A stretch of DNA of 46,471 nt from Promethearchaeota archaeon (GTDB lineage: Archaea > Asgardarchaeota > Lokiarchaeia > Sigyniarchaeales > SOKP01), in NCBI GenBank assembly GCA_048937405.1, contig JBHLNF010000019.1, positions 1 to 46,471 on the forward strand, read 5' to 3'. Below are positions 19,546 through 25,417 of this stretch, in pieces. The notes beneath the pieces were generated by a model, which saw only the letters and a list, made by a program, of their open reading frames with translations, searched no databases and was not told the origin of the DNA. The stretch's first letter is position 1. Each line of letters opens with the position of its first letter. The position numbers and the translations under genes were made by a program.

Positions 19546-20583
19546 CTATTGATATGGCATGGATTGTTCTTCATTAAGTTTAGAAATTACTTTCACTAAT
19601 TCAAACTCTTCTCTGTTTAGTTTAATCATCAAATTAGCATTCTTTTCAAAATCTTTTATAGAGTTTATGAGAATCCTCTTTAAATCATCAATCAGTTCTA
19701 AAATCGATTCGGTTTGTGACTTTTTTAAATGATTTATTGTTTCATCAAGTTCAGATAAATTGATCAAGAATCTATCGAGTAGTTCTAATCTTTGCTCTTC
19801 ATTCTTATCTAGTTCTTGTCTAAGAAAATCATTATATTTTTGTTCCTCATCTTTCTTATCTAATTTTTCAATAGCACTCTCTTTTTCAACTTTTTTCGGT
19901 TTAAGTTTGATACTTTCAAAGATTGAATCAATTTTAGTTAAGTCTAAAAGTTTACTTTTTAATTTCTCTTCATTCTTACCAATAACACTATAAAACTCTT
20001 TAGTGGGATTACTAATAATTAAATCTGGATTCAATATCTCTTCTCTTTTTAAGTATGAAGATATTAACAATTCAAAACATTCAGCAACATTTTCACCAGT
20101 TTTGGCAGATGTTAGCATTATATGATCATTTTTTGCTAAAATCTCTTGGATAGCTATTTTTGTGGATTCTGGTTTATCTAATAAATCCAATTTATTCCCA
20201 ACATATAGAGATAAGAAGTCTTCAGAATATTTATTTAAAGTTTCCAAAAAATCTTCTTTTAATTTTTCTAATGTTTCCTTTGGTCTAGTTAAATCAAAAA
20301 CTAAGATTGCAATATCTGTGTTTGTATATACTGAAGGATTAAATGGATTGAAAGATCTCTGACCACCTAAGTCCCAAATTGAAATCAAAATTTTAAGTTT
20401 TTTATCATTCTCCTTTAATATATAATCCTTTTTATTAGTGATATTACCTATTGTTGGTAAATATTGTTCAGGAATTTCATTACCTAAAAAAGCATCTACT
20501 AATGAAGTTTTCCCAACTTTTCCTTCTCCACAAATAACTATTTTAATATTAAATTTTATCTCCTCGTATGGAGTCCTCTTAAT
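19546..20583 (-). CDS. Rab/Roc-like small GTPase with C-terminal coiled-coil extension (~345 aa; non-canonical start)
   Basis: The frame stays open 65 codons upstream of the TTG at 20388, up to a TAG at 20584-20586, and there encodes G1 GEGKVGKTS and G2 YLPTIG. Downstream are G3 WDLGGQ, G4 NKLD and G5 TSAK. The exact start (ATT 20583 or a nearby ATA/ATT) is uncertain. Confidence 0.88.
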   Translation of the reverse strand: MKRTPYEEIKFNIKIVICGEGKVGKTSLVDAFLGNEIPEQYLPTIGNITNKKDYILKENDKKLKILISIWDLGGQRSFNPFNPSVYTNTDIAILVFDLTRPKETLEKLKEDFLETLNKYSEDFLSLYVGNKLDLLDKPESTKIAIQEILAKNDHIMLTSAKTGENVAECFELLISSYLKREEILNPDLIISNPTKEFYSVIGKNEEKLKSKLLDLTKIDSIFESIKLKPKKVEKESAIEKLDKKDEEQKYNDFLRQELDKNEEQRLELLDRFLINLSELDETINHLKKSQTESILELIDDLKRILINSIKDFEKNANLMIKLNREEFELVKVISKLNEEQSMPYQ

Positions 20584-21208
20584 CTATTTTATTTATTTCA
20601 AAATTTTTTTATAAGACTCAACTAAAATCAACAATTTTTTATAAAATCAAAAAGATCCCAATATTTAAAGTTATTTTTATAATATTTATTAATGTTGTTT
20701 GAATACCCCCATAATATTCTAATATTTTATTCATATTGTTTACGATTTAAACACATCTAATAAAATAATATAAGTATTTCCATAAAAGTTCAGTAAAGCT
20801 AAAAAGATCAAGATAATAATAAATATAAGGCATAAGATATTAGAATAAAGATTAAAAGAAACATGTATCTTCTTTTTGTATTTTAAAGCAATACTTATAT
20901 TCTTTTTCGTCTTATTTTATTATATTTCATATGAGTTTGATTGTCTAAAAATGAATTCAAAGAAAAAGATACAATTAATTTCAAATGTACTGTATATATA
21001 TGATGATGGGATTTATCTTTATTGTAGAAACATGTTTAATGGCAATTTAAAGGGAGATAGTCTTGGTTGTGGTTATCCTGTGGATTTATGTCATGATTAT
21101 AACGAATTTACTTACCCGAATGGTAATTGGGAAGACATTTCTCTGATAACAATAGATAAAATAATTCAAGATAAAAAACTCCTAATCTAATCAATGATTG
21201 TGAGAAGA

Positions 21209-22036
21209 ATGGAATTTTTAGAGACAAAAGTAATTCTAGAAGGTTTAAAGTTTCCAGAAGGTCCTCGTTGGCATGATGAGAGACTTTGGTTTTCTGATAT
21301 GAGATCACGAAAGGTTACAGTCGTTGATCTAAATGGAAATTCAGAAATAATAGCAGAAGTACCAAATCGCCCTTCTGGGTTGGGTTGGCTTCCTGATGGA
21401 AGTCTTTTAATTGTTTCAATGGAAGATCGTCATTTACTTCGTCTTGACGCGGACGGTCTTACTGAATTAGCTGATTTAAGCAAACTTATATCGTTTTCCA
21501 TAAATGATATGGTTGTAGATAAAGAAGGAAGATCCTACATAGGAAGTTTTGGCTTTGATTATCTCAATAATAAATCTTTCAATTCTGCTGAGATTGTACT
21601 TGTATCACCTCAAGGAGAAGCTAGGATTGTTGCTGATAATATGGATTTCCCTAATGGAATGGTTATCACTCCAGATGATAAAACTCTTATAGTAGCAGAA
21701 ACATATGCATTTCAACTTACAGCTTTTGATATACTTGATGATGGTTCTCTAACGAAACGAAGAGTTTGGGCGAATCTCGAATCATTACCACCAGATGGTA
21801 TATGTTTAGATGCAGAGGGTGCAATTTGGGTAGCTACACCTAACCATAGTAGTGTTGTACGTGTTCTTGAAGGTGGTAAAATAACTCATAAGGTTAATGT
21901 TTCCACAGAGGCTTATGCTTGTATGTTAGGGGGACCAGATAGAGATATACTCTTCATTTGTACATCAACTCAAGAAAGAACAAATGGAAGAATAGAATAT
22001 GTAAAAGTTGATGTACCTGGAGCAGGACTTCCTTAA
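21209..22036 (+). CDS. SMP-30/gluconolactonase/LRE family protein
   Basis: Motifs FPEGPRWH, INDMVVD, FPNG, PDGICLDAEGAIWVA. The start is at 21209 or 21194. Confidence 0.92.
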   Translation: MEFLETKVILEGLKFPEGPRWHDERLWFSDMRSRKVTVVDLNGNSEIIAEVPNRPSGLGWLPDGSLLIVSMEDRHLLRLDADGLTELADLSKLISFSINDMVVDKEGRSYIGSFGFDYLNNKSFNSAEIVLVSPQGEARIVADNMDFPNGMVITPDDKTLIVAETYAFQLTAFDILDDGSLTKRRVWANLESLPPDGICLDAEGAIWVATPNHSSVVRVLEGGKITHKVNVSTEAYACMLGGPDRDILFICTSTQERTNGRIEYVKVDVPGAGLP

Positions 22037-22088
22037 TTAATAACATATTTAAATAATTTTATTAGAACCACAAAATAATTATTAGAAA

Positions 22089-22565
22089 ATGACAAATAAT
22101 AGAAAAGAAATTGAACCGTATGATTATATTGAATATTTCAAGAAAAATACTGGACTTATAGTATCAATGGATAAAAGTGGAAAACCAAATGTTATGGCTC
22201 TTGATTGGAAAAATATCGAAGATTTTGACGGTAATATAGTAATAAGAGCTCAGGTGGCTTATTCTCGATATACTTATACCTTACTTACAAAAGGAGTAAA
22301 TCAATTTTCAATAAACATCCCCTCTGATGCTCAATATACTGCCGTAGATATTGCTGGATCTTATTCAGGAAGAAATACTGATAAATTCAAAAAAGCGGGA
22401 CTAGAAACCATTCCTGGAGAGAAAATTAAAGTACCTACTATAAAAGATTGCCTTTTAAGTTATGAATGCCAAATTATTCACACAAGTAAATCAAATATGA
22501 GTAGTCATCATTATTTCTATGGAAAAATTCTAGCTGCTTATGCCTCTGATGAAATATTAGAATAA
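22089..22565 (+). CDS. flavin reductase-like (flavoredoxin) protein
   Basis: Motifs GKPNVMA, SRYTY, FSINIP, GSYSGRNTDKF, YECQI, HHYFYGKI. Confidence 0.88.
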   Translation: MTNNRKEIEPYDYIEYFKKNTGLIVSMDKSGKPNVMALDWKNIEDFDGNIVIRAQVAYSRYTYTLLTKGVNQFSINIPSDAQYTAVDIAGSYSGRNTDKFKKAGLETIPGEKIKVPTIKDCLLSYECQIIHTSKSNMSSHHYFYGKILAAYASDEILE

Positions 22566-22982
22566 CTACTCTAATACTCTTTCACAATAGCAGTCTGAAG
22601 AATTTGAAATTTGTTCACCACACGGGCACATCTTTGGATGGTTATATCTTTCACAGATTTTATTTATAATATCACAAGAGAAAAGAAGATTGAATTTTTC
22701 GCATTCTTCATGAGCAACTTTAGGATTCACACTAAATTCATTAATTAATAAGATCTCAAGTAAGCGAGCATGACGAGTTAGCTCGATTGCCATATCTTTT
22801 CCTTTTTCTGATAGATTTACTGGGTTATAGCGTTGATAAATTACATATTGCTTTTCTTCCAATCTTTTAATAGAACTTCCTATTGTAGAATGTGGCATAT
22901 TAATCTTTTTAGCTATCTTACCTACCTTTTGAGGTCCATCTTTATATAACAATTTTAAAATTTTAAATTCGAAATCTAGCAT
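22566..22982 (-). CDS. DtxR/MntR-family metal-dependent repressor (short, Cys-rich)
   Basis: wHTH (IAKKINMPHSTIGSSIKRLEEK, YQRYNPVNLSEKG), RHARLLE, and C-terminal HPKMCPCG corresponding to canonical PxxCPHG. Confidence 0.85.
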   Translation of the reverse strand: MLDFEFKILKLLYKDGPQKVGKIAKKINMPHSTIGSSIKRLEEKQYVIYQRYNPVNLSEKGKDMAIELTRHARLLEILLINEFSVNPKVAHEECEKFNLLFSCDIINKICERYNHPKMCPCGEQISNSSDCYCERVLE

Positions 22983-23025
22983 TTTACAAAAGAAAAATAT
23001 AACTATTTAATTTATTAAATCAATA

Positions 23026-23781
23026 TTAGTGTTCATGACCTCCTAATGACAATAATAATACCATCGTTATAATTCCAAGTACCAGCACAAGTAATTGTCG
23101 AATAATATATTTTAAATCTGTGTGTTGATGAAGGTCTGGAGTTAAATCTGATAACGCAATATATATAAAACTTGCAGCAGAGATTGCTAATAAAAATGGT
23201 ACAACAAATTCAATCGAGTCTAAAATAAAATAAGAAATTATTGATGCAGGTATTGTTGTTGAACTCGAAATAATATTATAAATAAAAGCTTTCTTTCTTG
23301 AGTAACCTGAATGTAAAAGAACCCCAAAATCTCCTGTTTCTTGAGCTATTTCATGAATAATTATTGTGAATCCAGCAACAAGTCCAAGATTTAATCCTGA
23401 TAAAAATGCTGCAGCAATCACAATACCATCAGTAAAATTATGGAAAGAATCTCCCACAAGTATAATTGGACCAGAAGCCTGGGAATGAATCTCACATGTA
23501 TTATTCCGACAATTTCTCCATATCACAATTTTTTCCATAATAAAGAAGAAAAGGATACCACCTAAGATATAAGGCATAATTAAATGAGGTTCTCCAACTT
23601 CTTCAACAGCTTCAGGAATTAATCCTAAAAAAGCAACAGTTAACAAAACTCCTGTGGCAAAAGAAATTAGGATTGGAATTATTGTCTTTTGAAATTTCTC
23701 ACTTATAAACATGAAACTTCCAGCAGCACATATCGCGCCAATACTTCCTAAAATACTAAAAATTATAACCCAAAGTAAAAT
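23026..23781 (-). CDS. ZIP-family (ZupT/GufA) divalent metal transporter (non-canonical ATT start)
   Basis: Motifs SFATGVLL, GDSFHNFTDG, HEIAQETGDF, ASFIYIALSDLTP. The first TM helix (LLWVIIFSILGSIGAICAAG) lies in frame upstream of ATG 23712, beginning at ATT 23781. Confidence 0.9.
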   Translation of the reverse strand: MLLWVIIFSILGSIGAICAAGSFMFISEKFQKTIIPILISFATGVLLTVAFLGLIPEAVEEVGEPHLIMPYILGGILFFFIMEKIVIWRNCRNNTCEIHSQASGPIILVGDSFHNFTDGIVIAAAFLSGLNLGLVAGFTIIIHEIAQETGDFGVLLHSGYSRKKAFIYNIISSSTTIPASIISYFILDSIEFVVPFLLAISAASFIYIALSDLTPDLHQHTDLKYIIRQLLVLVLGIITMVLLLSLGGHEH

Positions 23782-23836
23782 ATTTTACCACTATATGTTA
23801 ATATTGAATTGATTTAGTTAGTTTTGTCAATTATTT

Positions 23837-23862
23837 AAAATTTACGATGGATCGTAAATTTT
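23837..23862. promoter_or_regulatory. inverted repeat AAAATTTACGAT-GG-ATCGTAAATTTT, probable DtxR-family operator
   Basis: Perfect 12-bp arms with a 2-bp spacer, 55 bp upstream of the ZIP-dtxR unit. AT-rich palindromes of this size are typical of DtxR/MntR boxes. Confidence 0.7.
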
Positions 23863-23980
23863 TATTAAATTAAATTTTACTAATTTTTCTCTTAAAAAGA
23901 TACTTGCTAAAAGAACTTAATAGTCAGAAAATCCAATTAATGTATAAGTCAAATATAATATCTATTCTAAAGGTCATTTC

Positions 23981-25417
23981 ATTATTAAAAAGCCACTAAT
24001 TCTAACTTGTATAGAATGTAATAAAAAGTATGAATTTACCTCAATTGAACATGAGTGTCCTGAATGTAAAGGTCTTTTATGGTTTGAATTAAATGTTGAT
24101 AATCTTAAAATAAAGTTTAATAAAATTAATATCAATAGCAAATTCTGGGACTTTAAATTCGCGTTTCCTCCAATCGATAAAAATTGCATTATAACTTTAG
24201 GTGAAGGTGGAACTCCTTGTAGATCTTCAAAAAAATTAAGTGAAAAATTACAAGTAAATAATTTATATTTTAAAGATGAAACATCAAATCCAACAAATTC
24301 TTTTAAGGATCGTACAGCAGCATTATTGGTATCACATGCAAGAAGTTGGGCTTTTGAAAAAATCATTTGTGCTTCAAATGGAAATCAAGGTGCTTCCATA
24401 GCAGCTTATTCTTCCCTTGAGGGAATTAAATGTTTCAATATTATTCCCAAGGAAATTGACGTAGGTAAAAAAGCTCAAATTATTGCTTATGATTCTGATT
24501 TAAAAATTGTCGGTGATACTGTTGACGACGCTATTGATTTTGTCTTAAATGATAAGGATTTTAAAGATTATTATCAAGGCACGCCAGAATTGAATCCCCT
24601 TACATTAGAAGCACAAAAAACCATAGCTTATGAAATCTCTAATCAGATTGAAATACCTAATTGGGTTATAATTCCAATGGGAAGTGGAGAACTACTAGTA
24701 AGTCTTTGGAAAGGTTTTAATGAACTTAAAAAAGTAAAAATCATTACTCAAATTCCAAAATTAATTGGTGTTCAATCTCAATCTTCATCTCCAATTATCA
24801 ACGAATTTTTTAATAATTCTGAACATAAAAAAGCAATTCCAAATGAGTATAAATCAATTGCATTAGGAATCTTGGTACAAAAGCCGATATATAAAGATTT
24901 AGCGATAAAATGTATAAAAGATAGTGAAGGAACCGTAATTGCTGTTCCTGAAGAGTTTTTATTAAACTCAATTGAAGAACTTATAAAAGATGAGGGAATA
25001 TTCGCAGAACCATCCTCTGCTTTAACTTTTGCTTCTTTAAAATTGTTAGATCAAAAAGGAGTGTTTGAATCTAAAGATAATATAGTTTGTCTCATTACTG
25101 GAAGTGGATTTAAAGCACCATATGTATTGGAGGCTATTTCATCACAAACTAAAACTACTGGAAAAGGTTCTATAATCATAACAAAGTTAAAAATACTCTC
25201 TCAGGTTTCTCTTTCAAGTATCAAAGGAATAACTGGAACAGAGATTAAGGAGACTATGGGTAATATTAGTTTAGCAGCTATATATCAACATCTAAAAGAA
25301 TTAGAGACAAAAGGTTTGATATACAGGAAAAAAGAAGGAAAGATTGTTTTATACTATATAGCTGATATTGGGAAAAAAGTCTTGGACGCTTTAGATGTAC
25401 TAATTACTTTACTTTAA
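23981..25417 (+). CDS. thrC: threonine synthase-like PLP enzyme with N-terminal Zn ribbon and C-terminal winged-HTH (~478 aa; non-canonical ATT start)
   Basis: The frame is open from the TAA at 23945-23947 and encodes CIEC...CPEC, TLGEGGTP and KDETSNPTNSFKDR (PLP Lys codon 24305-24307), all upstream of the first canonical start at 24326. Downstream are ASNGNQG, PMGSGEL, EPSSA, LITGSGFK, then the wHTH IYQHLKELETKGLI. Confidence 0.88.
   Translation: MIKKPLILTCIECNKKYEFTSIEHECPECKGLLWFELNVDNLKIKFNKININSKFWDFKFAFPPIDKNCIITLGEGGTPCRSSKKLSEKLQVNNLYFKDETSNPTNSFKDRTAALLVSHARSWAFEKIICASNGNQGASIAAYSSLEGIKCFNIIPKEIDVGKKAQIIAYDSDLKIVGDTVDDAIDFVLNDKDFKDYYQGTPELNPLTLEAQKTIAYEISNQIEIPNWVIIPMGSGELLVSLWKGFNELKKVKIITQIPKLIGVQSQSSSPIINEFFNNSEHKKAIPNEYKSIALGILVQKPIYKDLAIKCIKDSEGTVIAVPEEFLLNSIEELIKDEGIFAEPSSALTFASLKLLDQKGVFESKDNIVCLITGSGFKAPYVLEAISSQTKTTGKGSIIITKLKILSQVSLSSIKGITGTEIKETMGNISLAAIYQHLKELETKGLIYRKKEGKIVLYYIADIGKKVLDALDVLITLL

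Follow-up and report, generated by a model that had tools for sequence, protein, structure and literature searches.

How does translation begin at a gene whose product is conserved upstream of every usual start codon? The question is raised by three nearby genes, encoding a small Ras-like GTPase, a ZIP metal transporter, and a putative threonine synthase (ThrC-like), in a 46,471-nucleotide stretch of DNA from Promethearchaeota archaeon (Lokiarchaeia, Sigyniarchaeales, SOKP01; assembly GCA_048937405.1, contig JBHLNF010000019.1). This stretch, which we refer to as the window, is contig C8 of a metagenome-assembled genome (MAG) of 4.47 Mb, with a GC content of 29%, in 29 contigs. The start codon problem touches three of approximately 38 real genes in the window, and exceeds what would be put down to chance. 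Our analysis of the sequence indicates that all three are probably intact genes, with translation from near-cognate start codons, and that the whole genus shares this habit.

Note that, throughout, ATG, GTG, and TTG are termed canonical starts, and ATT, ATA, and ATC are collectively ATH. Codons before the first canonical start in an open frame are called pre-canonical. The first canonical starts were located using stop-to-stop and start-to-stop lists of open reading frames (ORFs) in the window. The genome containing the window is G000; G005, G006, G048, and similar numbers are other genomes of the genus, and G026 belongs to another family of the same order. For Shine-Dalgarno (SD) elements, a spacing window of 4-10 nt (aligned spacing) was used throughout. 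Before confident ATG starts, the genome's consensus SD is a G-rich block at -12 to -8. The features discussed are listed in Table 1.

ATT is the most likely start codon of the ZIP transporter gene

The ZIP open frame (23026-23784, minus strand) matches the Pfam Zip family at 1.2e-33, with 117.1 bits against a cut-off of 35.1. The first ATG, at 23712, is downstream of the first transmembrane segment (TM1), and an SD-like motif precedes an ATT codon at 23781. Both points were made in a first-pass annotation of the window and both stand. The same annotation put the ATT two codons after an in-frame TAA; a single codon (AAT) separates the two. The TAA itself overlaps the AGTGGT motif, whose G-T-G, at -10 to -8, occupies the position of the genome's consensus G-rich block. 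In orthologues, the corresponding site reads (A/G)GTGA and likewise includes in-frame stops (TGA TAA). Since in-frame TGA or TAA codons lie inside or next to the SD element, no upstream codon can be the start.

In 25 loci of the genus, our own included, the column containing ATT 23781 holds ATT 15 times, ATG 7 times, and ATC, TTG, and ACG once each. In the species with ACG, a TTG is located two codons further upstream. The first-pass annotation had proposed asking whether ATT aligns with ATG or TTG among relatives. It does so at 8 of the 25 ZIP loci and, for ThrC, ATG is the aligned codon in three species. In the ZIP protein tree, ATT is found on both sides of the midpoint root, and the well-supported (starred) branches force at least three changes of the ATG label. 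Hence, ATT and ATG have replaced each other repeatedly. Comparison of the 23 pre-canonical ZIP codons with those of G006 identified 10 identical codons, 9 synonymous changes, and 4 non-synonymous changes. We also considered an out-of-frame canonical start combined with an indel. This was rejected; the sole nearby GTG is inside the SD element and its frame relation is kept in 25 species. We conclude that translation of ZIP most likely starts at ATT 23781.

The surroundings of the ZIP gene have features of their own. A perfect inverted repeat (ATTTACGAT-GG-ATCGTAAAT, at 23840-23859) is located in the divergent ZIP/ThrC intergenic region, approximately 60-80 nt upstream of the ZIP start. In several species, ZIP orthologues are also preceded by similar palindromes (TTTACGA...TCGTAAA). 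A neighbouring gene (22566-22982, minus strand), adjacent to ZIP, matches a 'metal-dependent transcriptional regulator' record. Because this regulator-like gene adjoins ZIP, the inverted repeat is a candidate operator for metal control of the transporter.

ATT is the likely start codon of the ThrC-like gene

The ThrC open frame (23948-25417, plus strand) matches Pfam PALP at 1.7e-62 (211.9 bits; cut-off 35). Note that membership of the PALP family is what was tested, and that the product is termed ThrC-like here. The first canonical start, TTG 24326, is residue 127 of the frame, and the PALP match begins at residue 82. The pre-canonical segment contains a Zn ribbon and the motif SFKDR, with the lysine that binds pyridoxal phosphate (PLP). 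An AAGGT sequence is found 6 nt before the first of two adjacent ATT codons, at 23981. All of these observations agree with the first-pass annotation.

The 5' ends of eleven orthologues from the genus, with 64-77% identity, were read. Three species have TTC ATT ATG at the start of the gene, and seven, our own included, have ATT in the ATG column. In five of the seven ATT-bearing species (G000, G006, G005, G008, and G002) there is no in-frame canonical start before the Zn ribbon, and in G005, G008, and G015 a TAA directly precedes the TTC. The ATT-bearing species have in common AGAGGT or AAGGT, 9 nt upstream of the start; in the ATG-bearing species the SD element is weak or absent. Between ATT 23984 and TTG 24326 there are 114 pre-canonical codons. 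Compared with G006, 52 are identical, 26 have synonymous changes, and 36 have non-synonymous changes. Synonymous changes are frequent in the pre-canonical segments of both ZIP and ThrC. To judge from this pattern, both segments are under purifying selection. The likely start of ThrC is the second ATT, at 23984.

The ThrC-like protein also has a C-terminal winged-helix domain (HxlR/LexA-like; 25220-25417, plus strand), corresponding to residues ~431-486 of the open frame. Such a fusion is unusual for a PALP enzyme, and the protein length is kept in orthologues from the genus.

The GTPase has two near-cognate start candidates

The GTPase frame matches Pfam Ras (PF00071) at 2.5e-26, with 92.6 bits against a cut-off of 21.6. 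A motif scan located the G1 P-loop, DxxG, and NKxD in this one frame. Position 1 of the Ras profile falls at residue 14, and there is no ATG, GTG, or TTG before TTG 20388, which is residue 66. The P-loop (20529-20503) is therefore upstream of the first canonical start, as first proposed, and the ORF lists and the Pfam match confirm this.

Most orthologues use a conserved TTG as the start; this codon lies behind GGCGAT and precedes the P-loop glycine by 12 codons. Our genome and its closest relative, G048, have GAG in this column, and both read GAG GAG ATA AAR TTT AAT ATT AAA. The orthologues in G005 and G038 have also lost the TTG, so that 4 of 25 are without a canonical start. Two candidates are apparent in the shared sequence, and both are conserved only with G048. 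ATT 20547 directly precedes position 1 of the Ras profile, an AGGAG sequence is at an aligned spacing of 9 nt, inside the 4-10 nt window, and both codon and geometry are kept in G048. The alternative, ATA 20559, is 2 codons from the TTG column of the orthologues and abuts GAGGAG, with no spacer. On these grounds we favour ATT 20547 as the most likely start of the GTPase, and retain ATA 20559 as an alternative.

Other possibilities at this locus were discarded. The first-pass annotation favoured ATT 20583, which does directly follow an in-frame TAG as described. As a start codon it fares poorly; the aligned codon in G048 is AGT, and there is no G-rich SD element upstream. Read-through of the TAG, by pyrrolysine insertion, would meet an in-frame TAA three codons further upstream. 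Finally, an out-of-frame canonical start, joined by an indel, was sought. Between the P-loop and ~20640 there is neither ATG nor GTG, and the single TTG leads directly to a stop codon.

The situation is not confined to one GTPase. Of the 60 P-loop GTPase frames in the genome, 4 lack any canonical start 6 or more codons ahead of the P-loop. Three further small GTPases of this kind are at C17:263232-263841, C17:263994-264567, and C7:892592-893069 (all plus strand). One of the three has AAGGTG, followed 8 nt later by ATA.

Table 1. Positions of coding regions, start codon candidates, and SD-like elements in the window.
Feature	Position	Strand	Remarks
ZIP metal transporter coding sequence, from ATT	23026..23781	-	251 codons plus stop; Pfam Zip (PF02535)
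ATT, most likely ZIP start codon	23779..23781	-	aligned with ATT/ATG/TTG in genus
SD-like AGTGGT, overlapping in-frame TAA, upstream of ZIP	23785..23792	-	G-T-G at -10 to -8
ThrC-like coding sequence, from second ATT	23984..25417	+	Zn ribbon, PALP, C-terminal winged helix-turn-helix; Pfam PALP (PF00291)
ATT ATT; second ATT (23984) likely ThrC start	23981..23986	+	orthologue columns
SD-like AAGGT of ThrC	23970..23974	+	kept in ATT-bearing species
19-codon ATG-initiated ORF, +1 frame, overlapping ThrC start	23940..23999	+	canonical start in four species
Small Ras-like GTPase open frame, with coiled-coil tail	19546..20583	-	Pfam Ras, residues 14-176
ATT, best GTPase start candidate	20545..20547	-	directly before Pfam Ras profile position 1
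ATA, alternative GTPase start candidate	20557..20559	-	kept in G048
GAGGAG, SD-like	20560..20565	-	kept in G048
ATT directly after TAG (first-pass start)	20581..20583	-	not a credible start

Near-cognate starts are a feature of the genome and genus

The genome has 3,246 ORFs with a length of 150 codons or more; in 5.1% of these, the first canonical start is preceded by 30 or more codons, and in 2.3% by 50 or more. Genome-wide, SD 5-mers were counted in ORFs having 15 or more pre-canonical codons. They are found ahead of 6.5% of ATT codons and 5.8% of ATA codons, compared with 2.6% of other codons. This enrichment is approximately 2.5-fold (Fisher p = 3e-7 for ATT and 1e-4 for ATA) and was reproduced in G006, a single-contig genome of the genus, of which 1.6 Mb of sequence was used. 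Note that the contrast is weak if all pre-canonical codons are included, and clear once the test is limited to ORFs with long pre-canonical regions.

As a control, a 0.8-Mb sample of G026 was analysed. Here, SD elements precede 2 of 84 ATT codons, 0 of 60 ATA codons, and 1 of 27 ATC codons, compared with 2.7% of other codons. There is no enrichment, and ATG starts in G026 use SD elements at least as often (21%). Taken together, the negative result for G026 and the positive result for G006 indicate that the signal is not created by the method. The near-cognate habit looks lineage-restricted, on control numbers that are small.

For an orthologue tally, mutual-best pairs of stop-to-stop frames from our genome and G006 were used. 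Antisense 'shadow' ORFs inflated the unfiltered tally, and removal of ORFs shadowed by longer ones left 890 pairs. In 8.3% of G000 genes and 11.0% of G006 genes, homology begins 10 or more codons ahead of the first canonical start; for 15 or more codons, the values are 5.1% and 6.9%. The codons aligned with confident ATG starts are also informative. Opposite 434 such starts in G006, our genome has ATG 346 times, TTG 14, ATA 13, ATT 7, and GTG 5. In the reverse direction, G006 has ATG 364, TTG 20, ATA 12, GTG 8, ATT 6, and ATC 4. ATG thus accounts for ~80% of aligned starts, and ATA and ATT are opposite confident ATG codons about as often as TTG and GTG. Furthermore, an SD 5-mer is present at 41% of ATH starts without an upstream canonical codon, compared with 15% of ATG starts and ~30% of TTG or GTG starts (p = 0.008). 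Stronger SD elements at ATH starts are as expected if weak codons need strong SD elements.

The first-pass annotation supposed that non-canonical initiation is appreciably frequent in this lineage. The SD enrichment, the homology in 890 pairs, and the aligned codons all bear this out, with ATA about as frequent as ATT. We estimate that ATT and ATA, and rarely ATC, may start roughly 2-8% of genes across the genus. An example outside the window is the gene for ribosomal protein S4 (G000:C28:552392, plus strand; N-terminus IGDPRRLK). The apparent start is ATA, with AAGGTGA 6 nt before it. In G006 the aligned codon is ATG, and the next canonical start is 23 codons downstream.

Some further cases can be described briefly. 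In the same codon test, CTG is also SD-enriched (6/28). A gene with two 4Fe-4S ferredoxin-type cysteine clusters (G000:C6:21291-22487, plus strand) has 103 codons upstream of its first ATG. The sequence here is AAGGTGA, then TTT AAT CTG ATA, and either CTG or ATA may be the start. For the other long pre-canonical frames in the window (35037 and 9059), inspection gave no convincing ATH start.

The gene for initiation factor aIF1 itself appears to start at ATT

The first-pass annotation suggested inspecting aIF1 and aIF2; aIF1 is the factor that proofreads start codons and rejects those other than AUG. The genome has a single SUI1/aIF1 gene (PF01253; G000:C29:21980-22300, minus strand), in which the Zn knuckle is upstream of the first TTG. 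An ATT is found two codons after an in-frame TAA. The sequence could be read in 22 genomes of the genus, and the same ATT is present in 22 of 22. In these genomes there is very little variation in the start block, which consists of AAGGTTGTGA, a stop codon, two codons, and ATT AAA GAC GAC. At this point, genomes from other families in the order contain GTG, TTG, or ATA instead.

Discussion

Our data suggest a route to initiation at these genes. A duplex between the SD and anti-SD sequences (of the GGTG, AGGT, or GGAG type, ~7 nt upstream) would place the 30S subunit. Initiator Met-tRNA would then pair with AUU, or elsewhere in the genome AUA, via two of three bases. The tolerance for such near-cognate initiation would be set by aIF1, and an AUU-started aIF1 would exert negative feedback on its own synthesis, in the manner of IF3 and eIF1. 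By analogy with those factors, the conserved ATT of aIF1 suggests feedback that sets near-cognate tolerance. From sequence, we infer initiation at AUU, methionine as the N-terminal residue, and autoregulation of aIF1. The relaxed start selection proposed by the first-pass annotation would be consistent with these results. A broader possibility is that start stringency is globally relaxed and tunable, with an AUU/AUA regulon, comprising a few percent of the proteome and including ribosomal proteins, whose output is set by the level of aIF1, sensed via its own invariant AUU. We hold this view tentatively, as plausible yet just short of probable.

Several points weigh against initiation at near-cognate codons as we have described it. 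The SD spacing is not ideal for either GTPase candidate. Since 16S rRNA is absent from the assembly, we have assumed the anti-SD sequence; a search of our MAG found no rRNA. Estimates of frequency differ with the criterion, from 2% to 8%, and BLAST alignments that extend too far may contribute to them. No initiator tRNA was found in the assembly using ARAGORN, the Rfam tRNA model, or anticodon-arm patterns, which leaves room for an unusual initiator. At ThrC, a conserved +1-frame ORF with a canonical start could aid translation, via coupling or frameshifting. This ORF might encode a leader peptide, serve in coupling, or simply reflect conservation of the 5' region.

The last two points lead to specific alternatives. 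Applying to ThrC only, translation might start at ATG 23940 of the +1-frame ORF, with subsequent -1 slippage on the A-run at 23987-23991, or termination and reinitiation at ATT. In favour, the position of the ORF's canonical start is shared by G000, G006, G005 (where it is TTG), and G008, and the ORF ends 4 codons past the ThrC ATT. Against this, no X XXY YYZ heptamer is kept across species, the A-run is broken in G008, and the ORF is interrupted in G015. By eye, no such ORF is seen in the three ATG-bearing species, and ZIP, aIF1, and many other ATT or ATA genes do without any device of this type. We regard this explanation as improbable. Somewhat less probable still is that an altered or dedicated initiator tRNA, or initiation with elongator Ile-tRNA, reads AUU and AUA cognately, so that these codons are not 'weak' in the lineage. 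Besides the lack of a recognisable initiator, only 20 tRNA matches were obtained in our genome. Many have introns and several have two or more, such as the CAU tRNA at C17:141571-141708. However, ATG is by far the commonest start, ATH starts have the stronger SD elements expected of weak codons, and the ATT of aIF1 fits stringency feedback.

Near-cognate initiation must also be weighed against more mundane readings. The genes might be translated only from TTG 20388, ATG 23712, and TTG 24326, yielding truncated proteins, or they might be pseudogenes. Gene callers do pick the downstream start, and the public record holds the exact 228-residue ZIP product beginning at ATG 23712. Yet truncated forms would lose the P-loop, TM1, and the Zn ribbon and PLP lysine, respectively. 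Conservation of the pre-canonical codons, in which many of the changes are synonymous, and open frames that remain intact in as many as 25 species make this reading highly improbable. We give even less credence to assembly or consensus errors, with ATG misread as ATT, or homopolymer indels, creating false non-canonical starts. The MAG is AT-rich and has scaffold gaps, but the same ATT is found in many independently assembled genomes (15 for ZIP, 7 for ThrC, and 22 for aIF1), including those in a single contig. The first-pass annotation had named such errors, or a frameshift to an upstream canonical start, as grounds for abandoning its proposal. The former are excluded by the independent assemblies, and no frameshift provides a general canonical start.

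Near-cognate initiation at this scale would have practical consequences. With gene finders restricted to ATG, GTG, and TTG, a few percent of the lineage's proteins would be cut short or might be overlooked. This affects inventories of 'eukaryotic signature' GTPases, and of other Asgard proteins, used in studies of eukaryogenesis. Systematic mis-annotation of N-termini, as the first-pass annotation foresaw, is shown in part: a truncated product is on record for ZIP and for one of seven others. Frequent initiation at AUU and AUA, together with an AUU-started aIF1, may also provide a natural system for understanding how the start codon fidelity of e/aIF1 is set and evolves.

How does this compare with known systems? 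A review of archaeal initiation gives AUG, GUG, and UUG as the sole start codons, on leadered and leaderless mRNAs (PMC7531240). As in that canonical scheme, the 30S subunit would be placed by SD elements in our genus, and ATG is the majority start. Unlike it, the genus adds AUU and AUA at about the frequency of GUG and UUG. In bacteria, infC and pcnB of E. coli have AUU or AUA starts behind strong SD elements, and four such sites have been mapped behind extended SD elements in S. aureus, namely infC (AUA), cvfC1 (AUU), ccpN (AUA), and citZ (AUA) (PMC13009471). The likeness is close, in that a near-cognate codon lies at a normal distance from a strong or extended SD element, and is conserved among relatives. 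In both settings, the gene for a fidelity factor uses such a start: IF3 in bacteria, and aIF1 here. There are also differences. The bacterial cases are a handful of genes per genome, whereas here an estimated 2-8% of genes would be involved, as predicted from sequence. Furthermore, our genus is archaeal, with the eukaryote-type factors aIF1, aIF1A, and aIF2, and housekeeping genes such as that for S4 are affected.

With respect to aIF1, this factor disfavours non-canonical starts in Sulfolobus and Pyrococcus systems (PMC6237735). Eukaryotic eIF1 is autoregulated via a poor initiation context (cited in PMC6237735). In each case, an orthologous e/aIF1 protein rejects poor start sites and its own mRNA has a poor start site. 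For eukaryotic eIF1 the weak feature is the Kozak context of a scanned AUG, whereas here it is an AUU placed by an SD element, and the feedback is putative. Mitochondrial and Mycoplasma-type codes (NCBI tables 2-5) also include ATT, ATA, and ATC as alternative starts and, as appears to be the case in our genus, are associated with AT-rich genomes in which ATH starts are in routine use. Unlike those systems, our genome shows no sign of an altered code, its size (4.5 Mb) is that of a free-living organism, and initiation appears SD-dependent. A full-text literature search found no paper on AUU or AUA starts in Asgard or other archaea. SD-led near-cognate initiation is itself known, from infC, pcnB, and S. 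aureus; what appears to be new is its genus-wide form in archaea.

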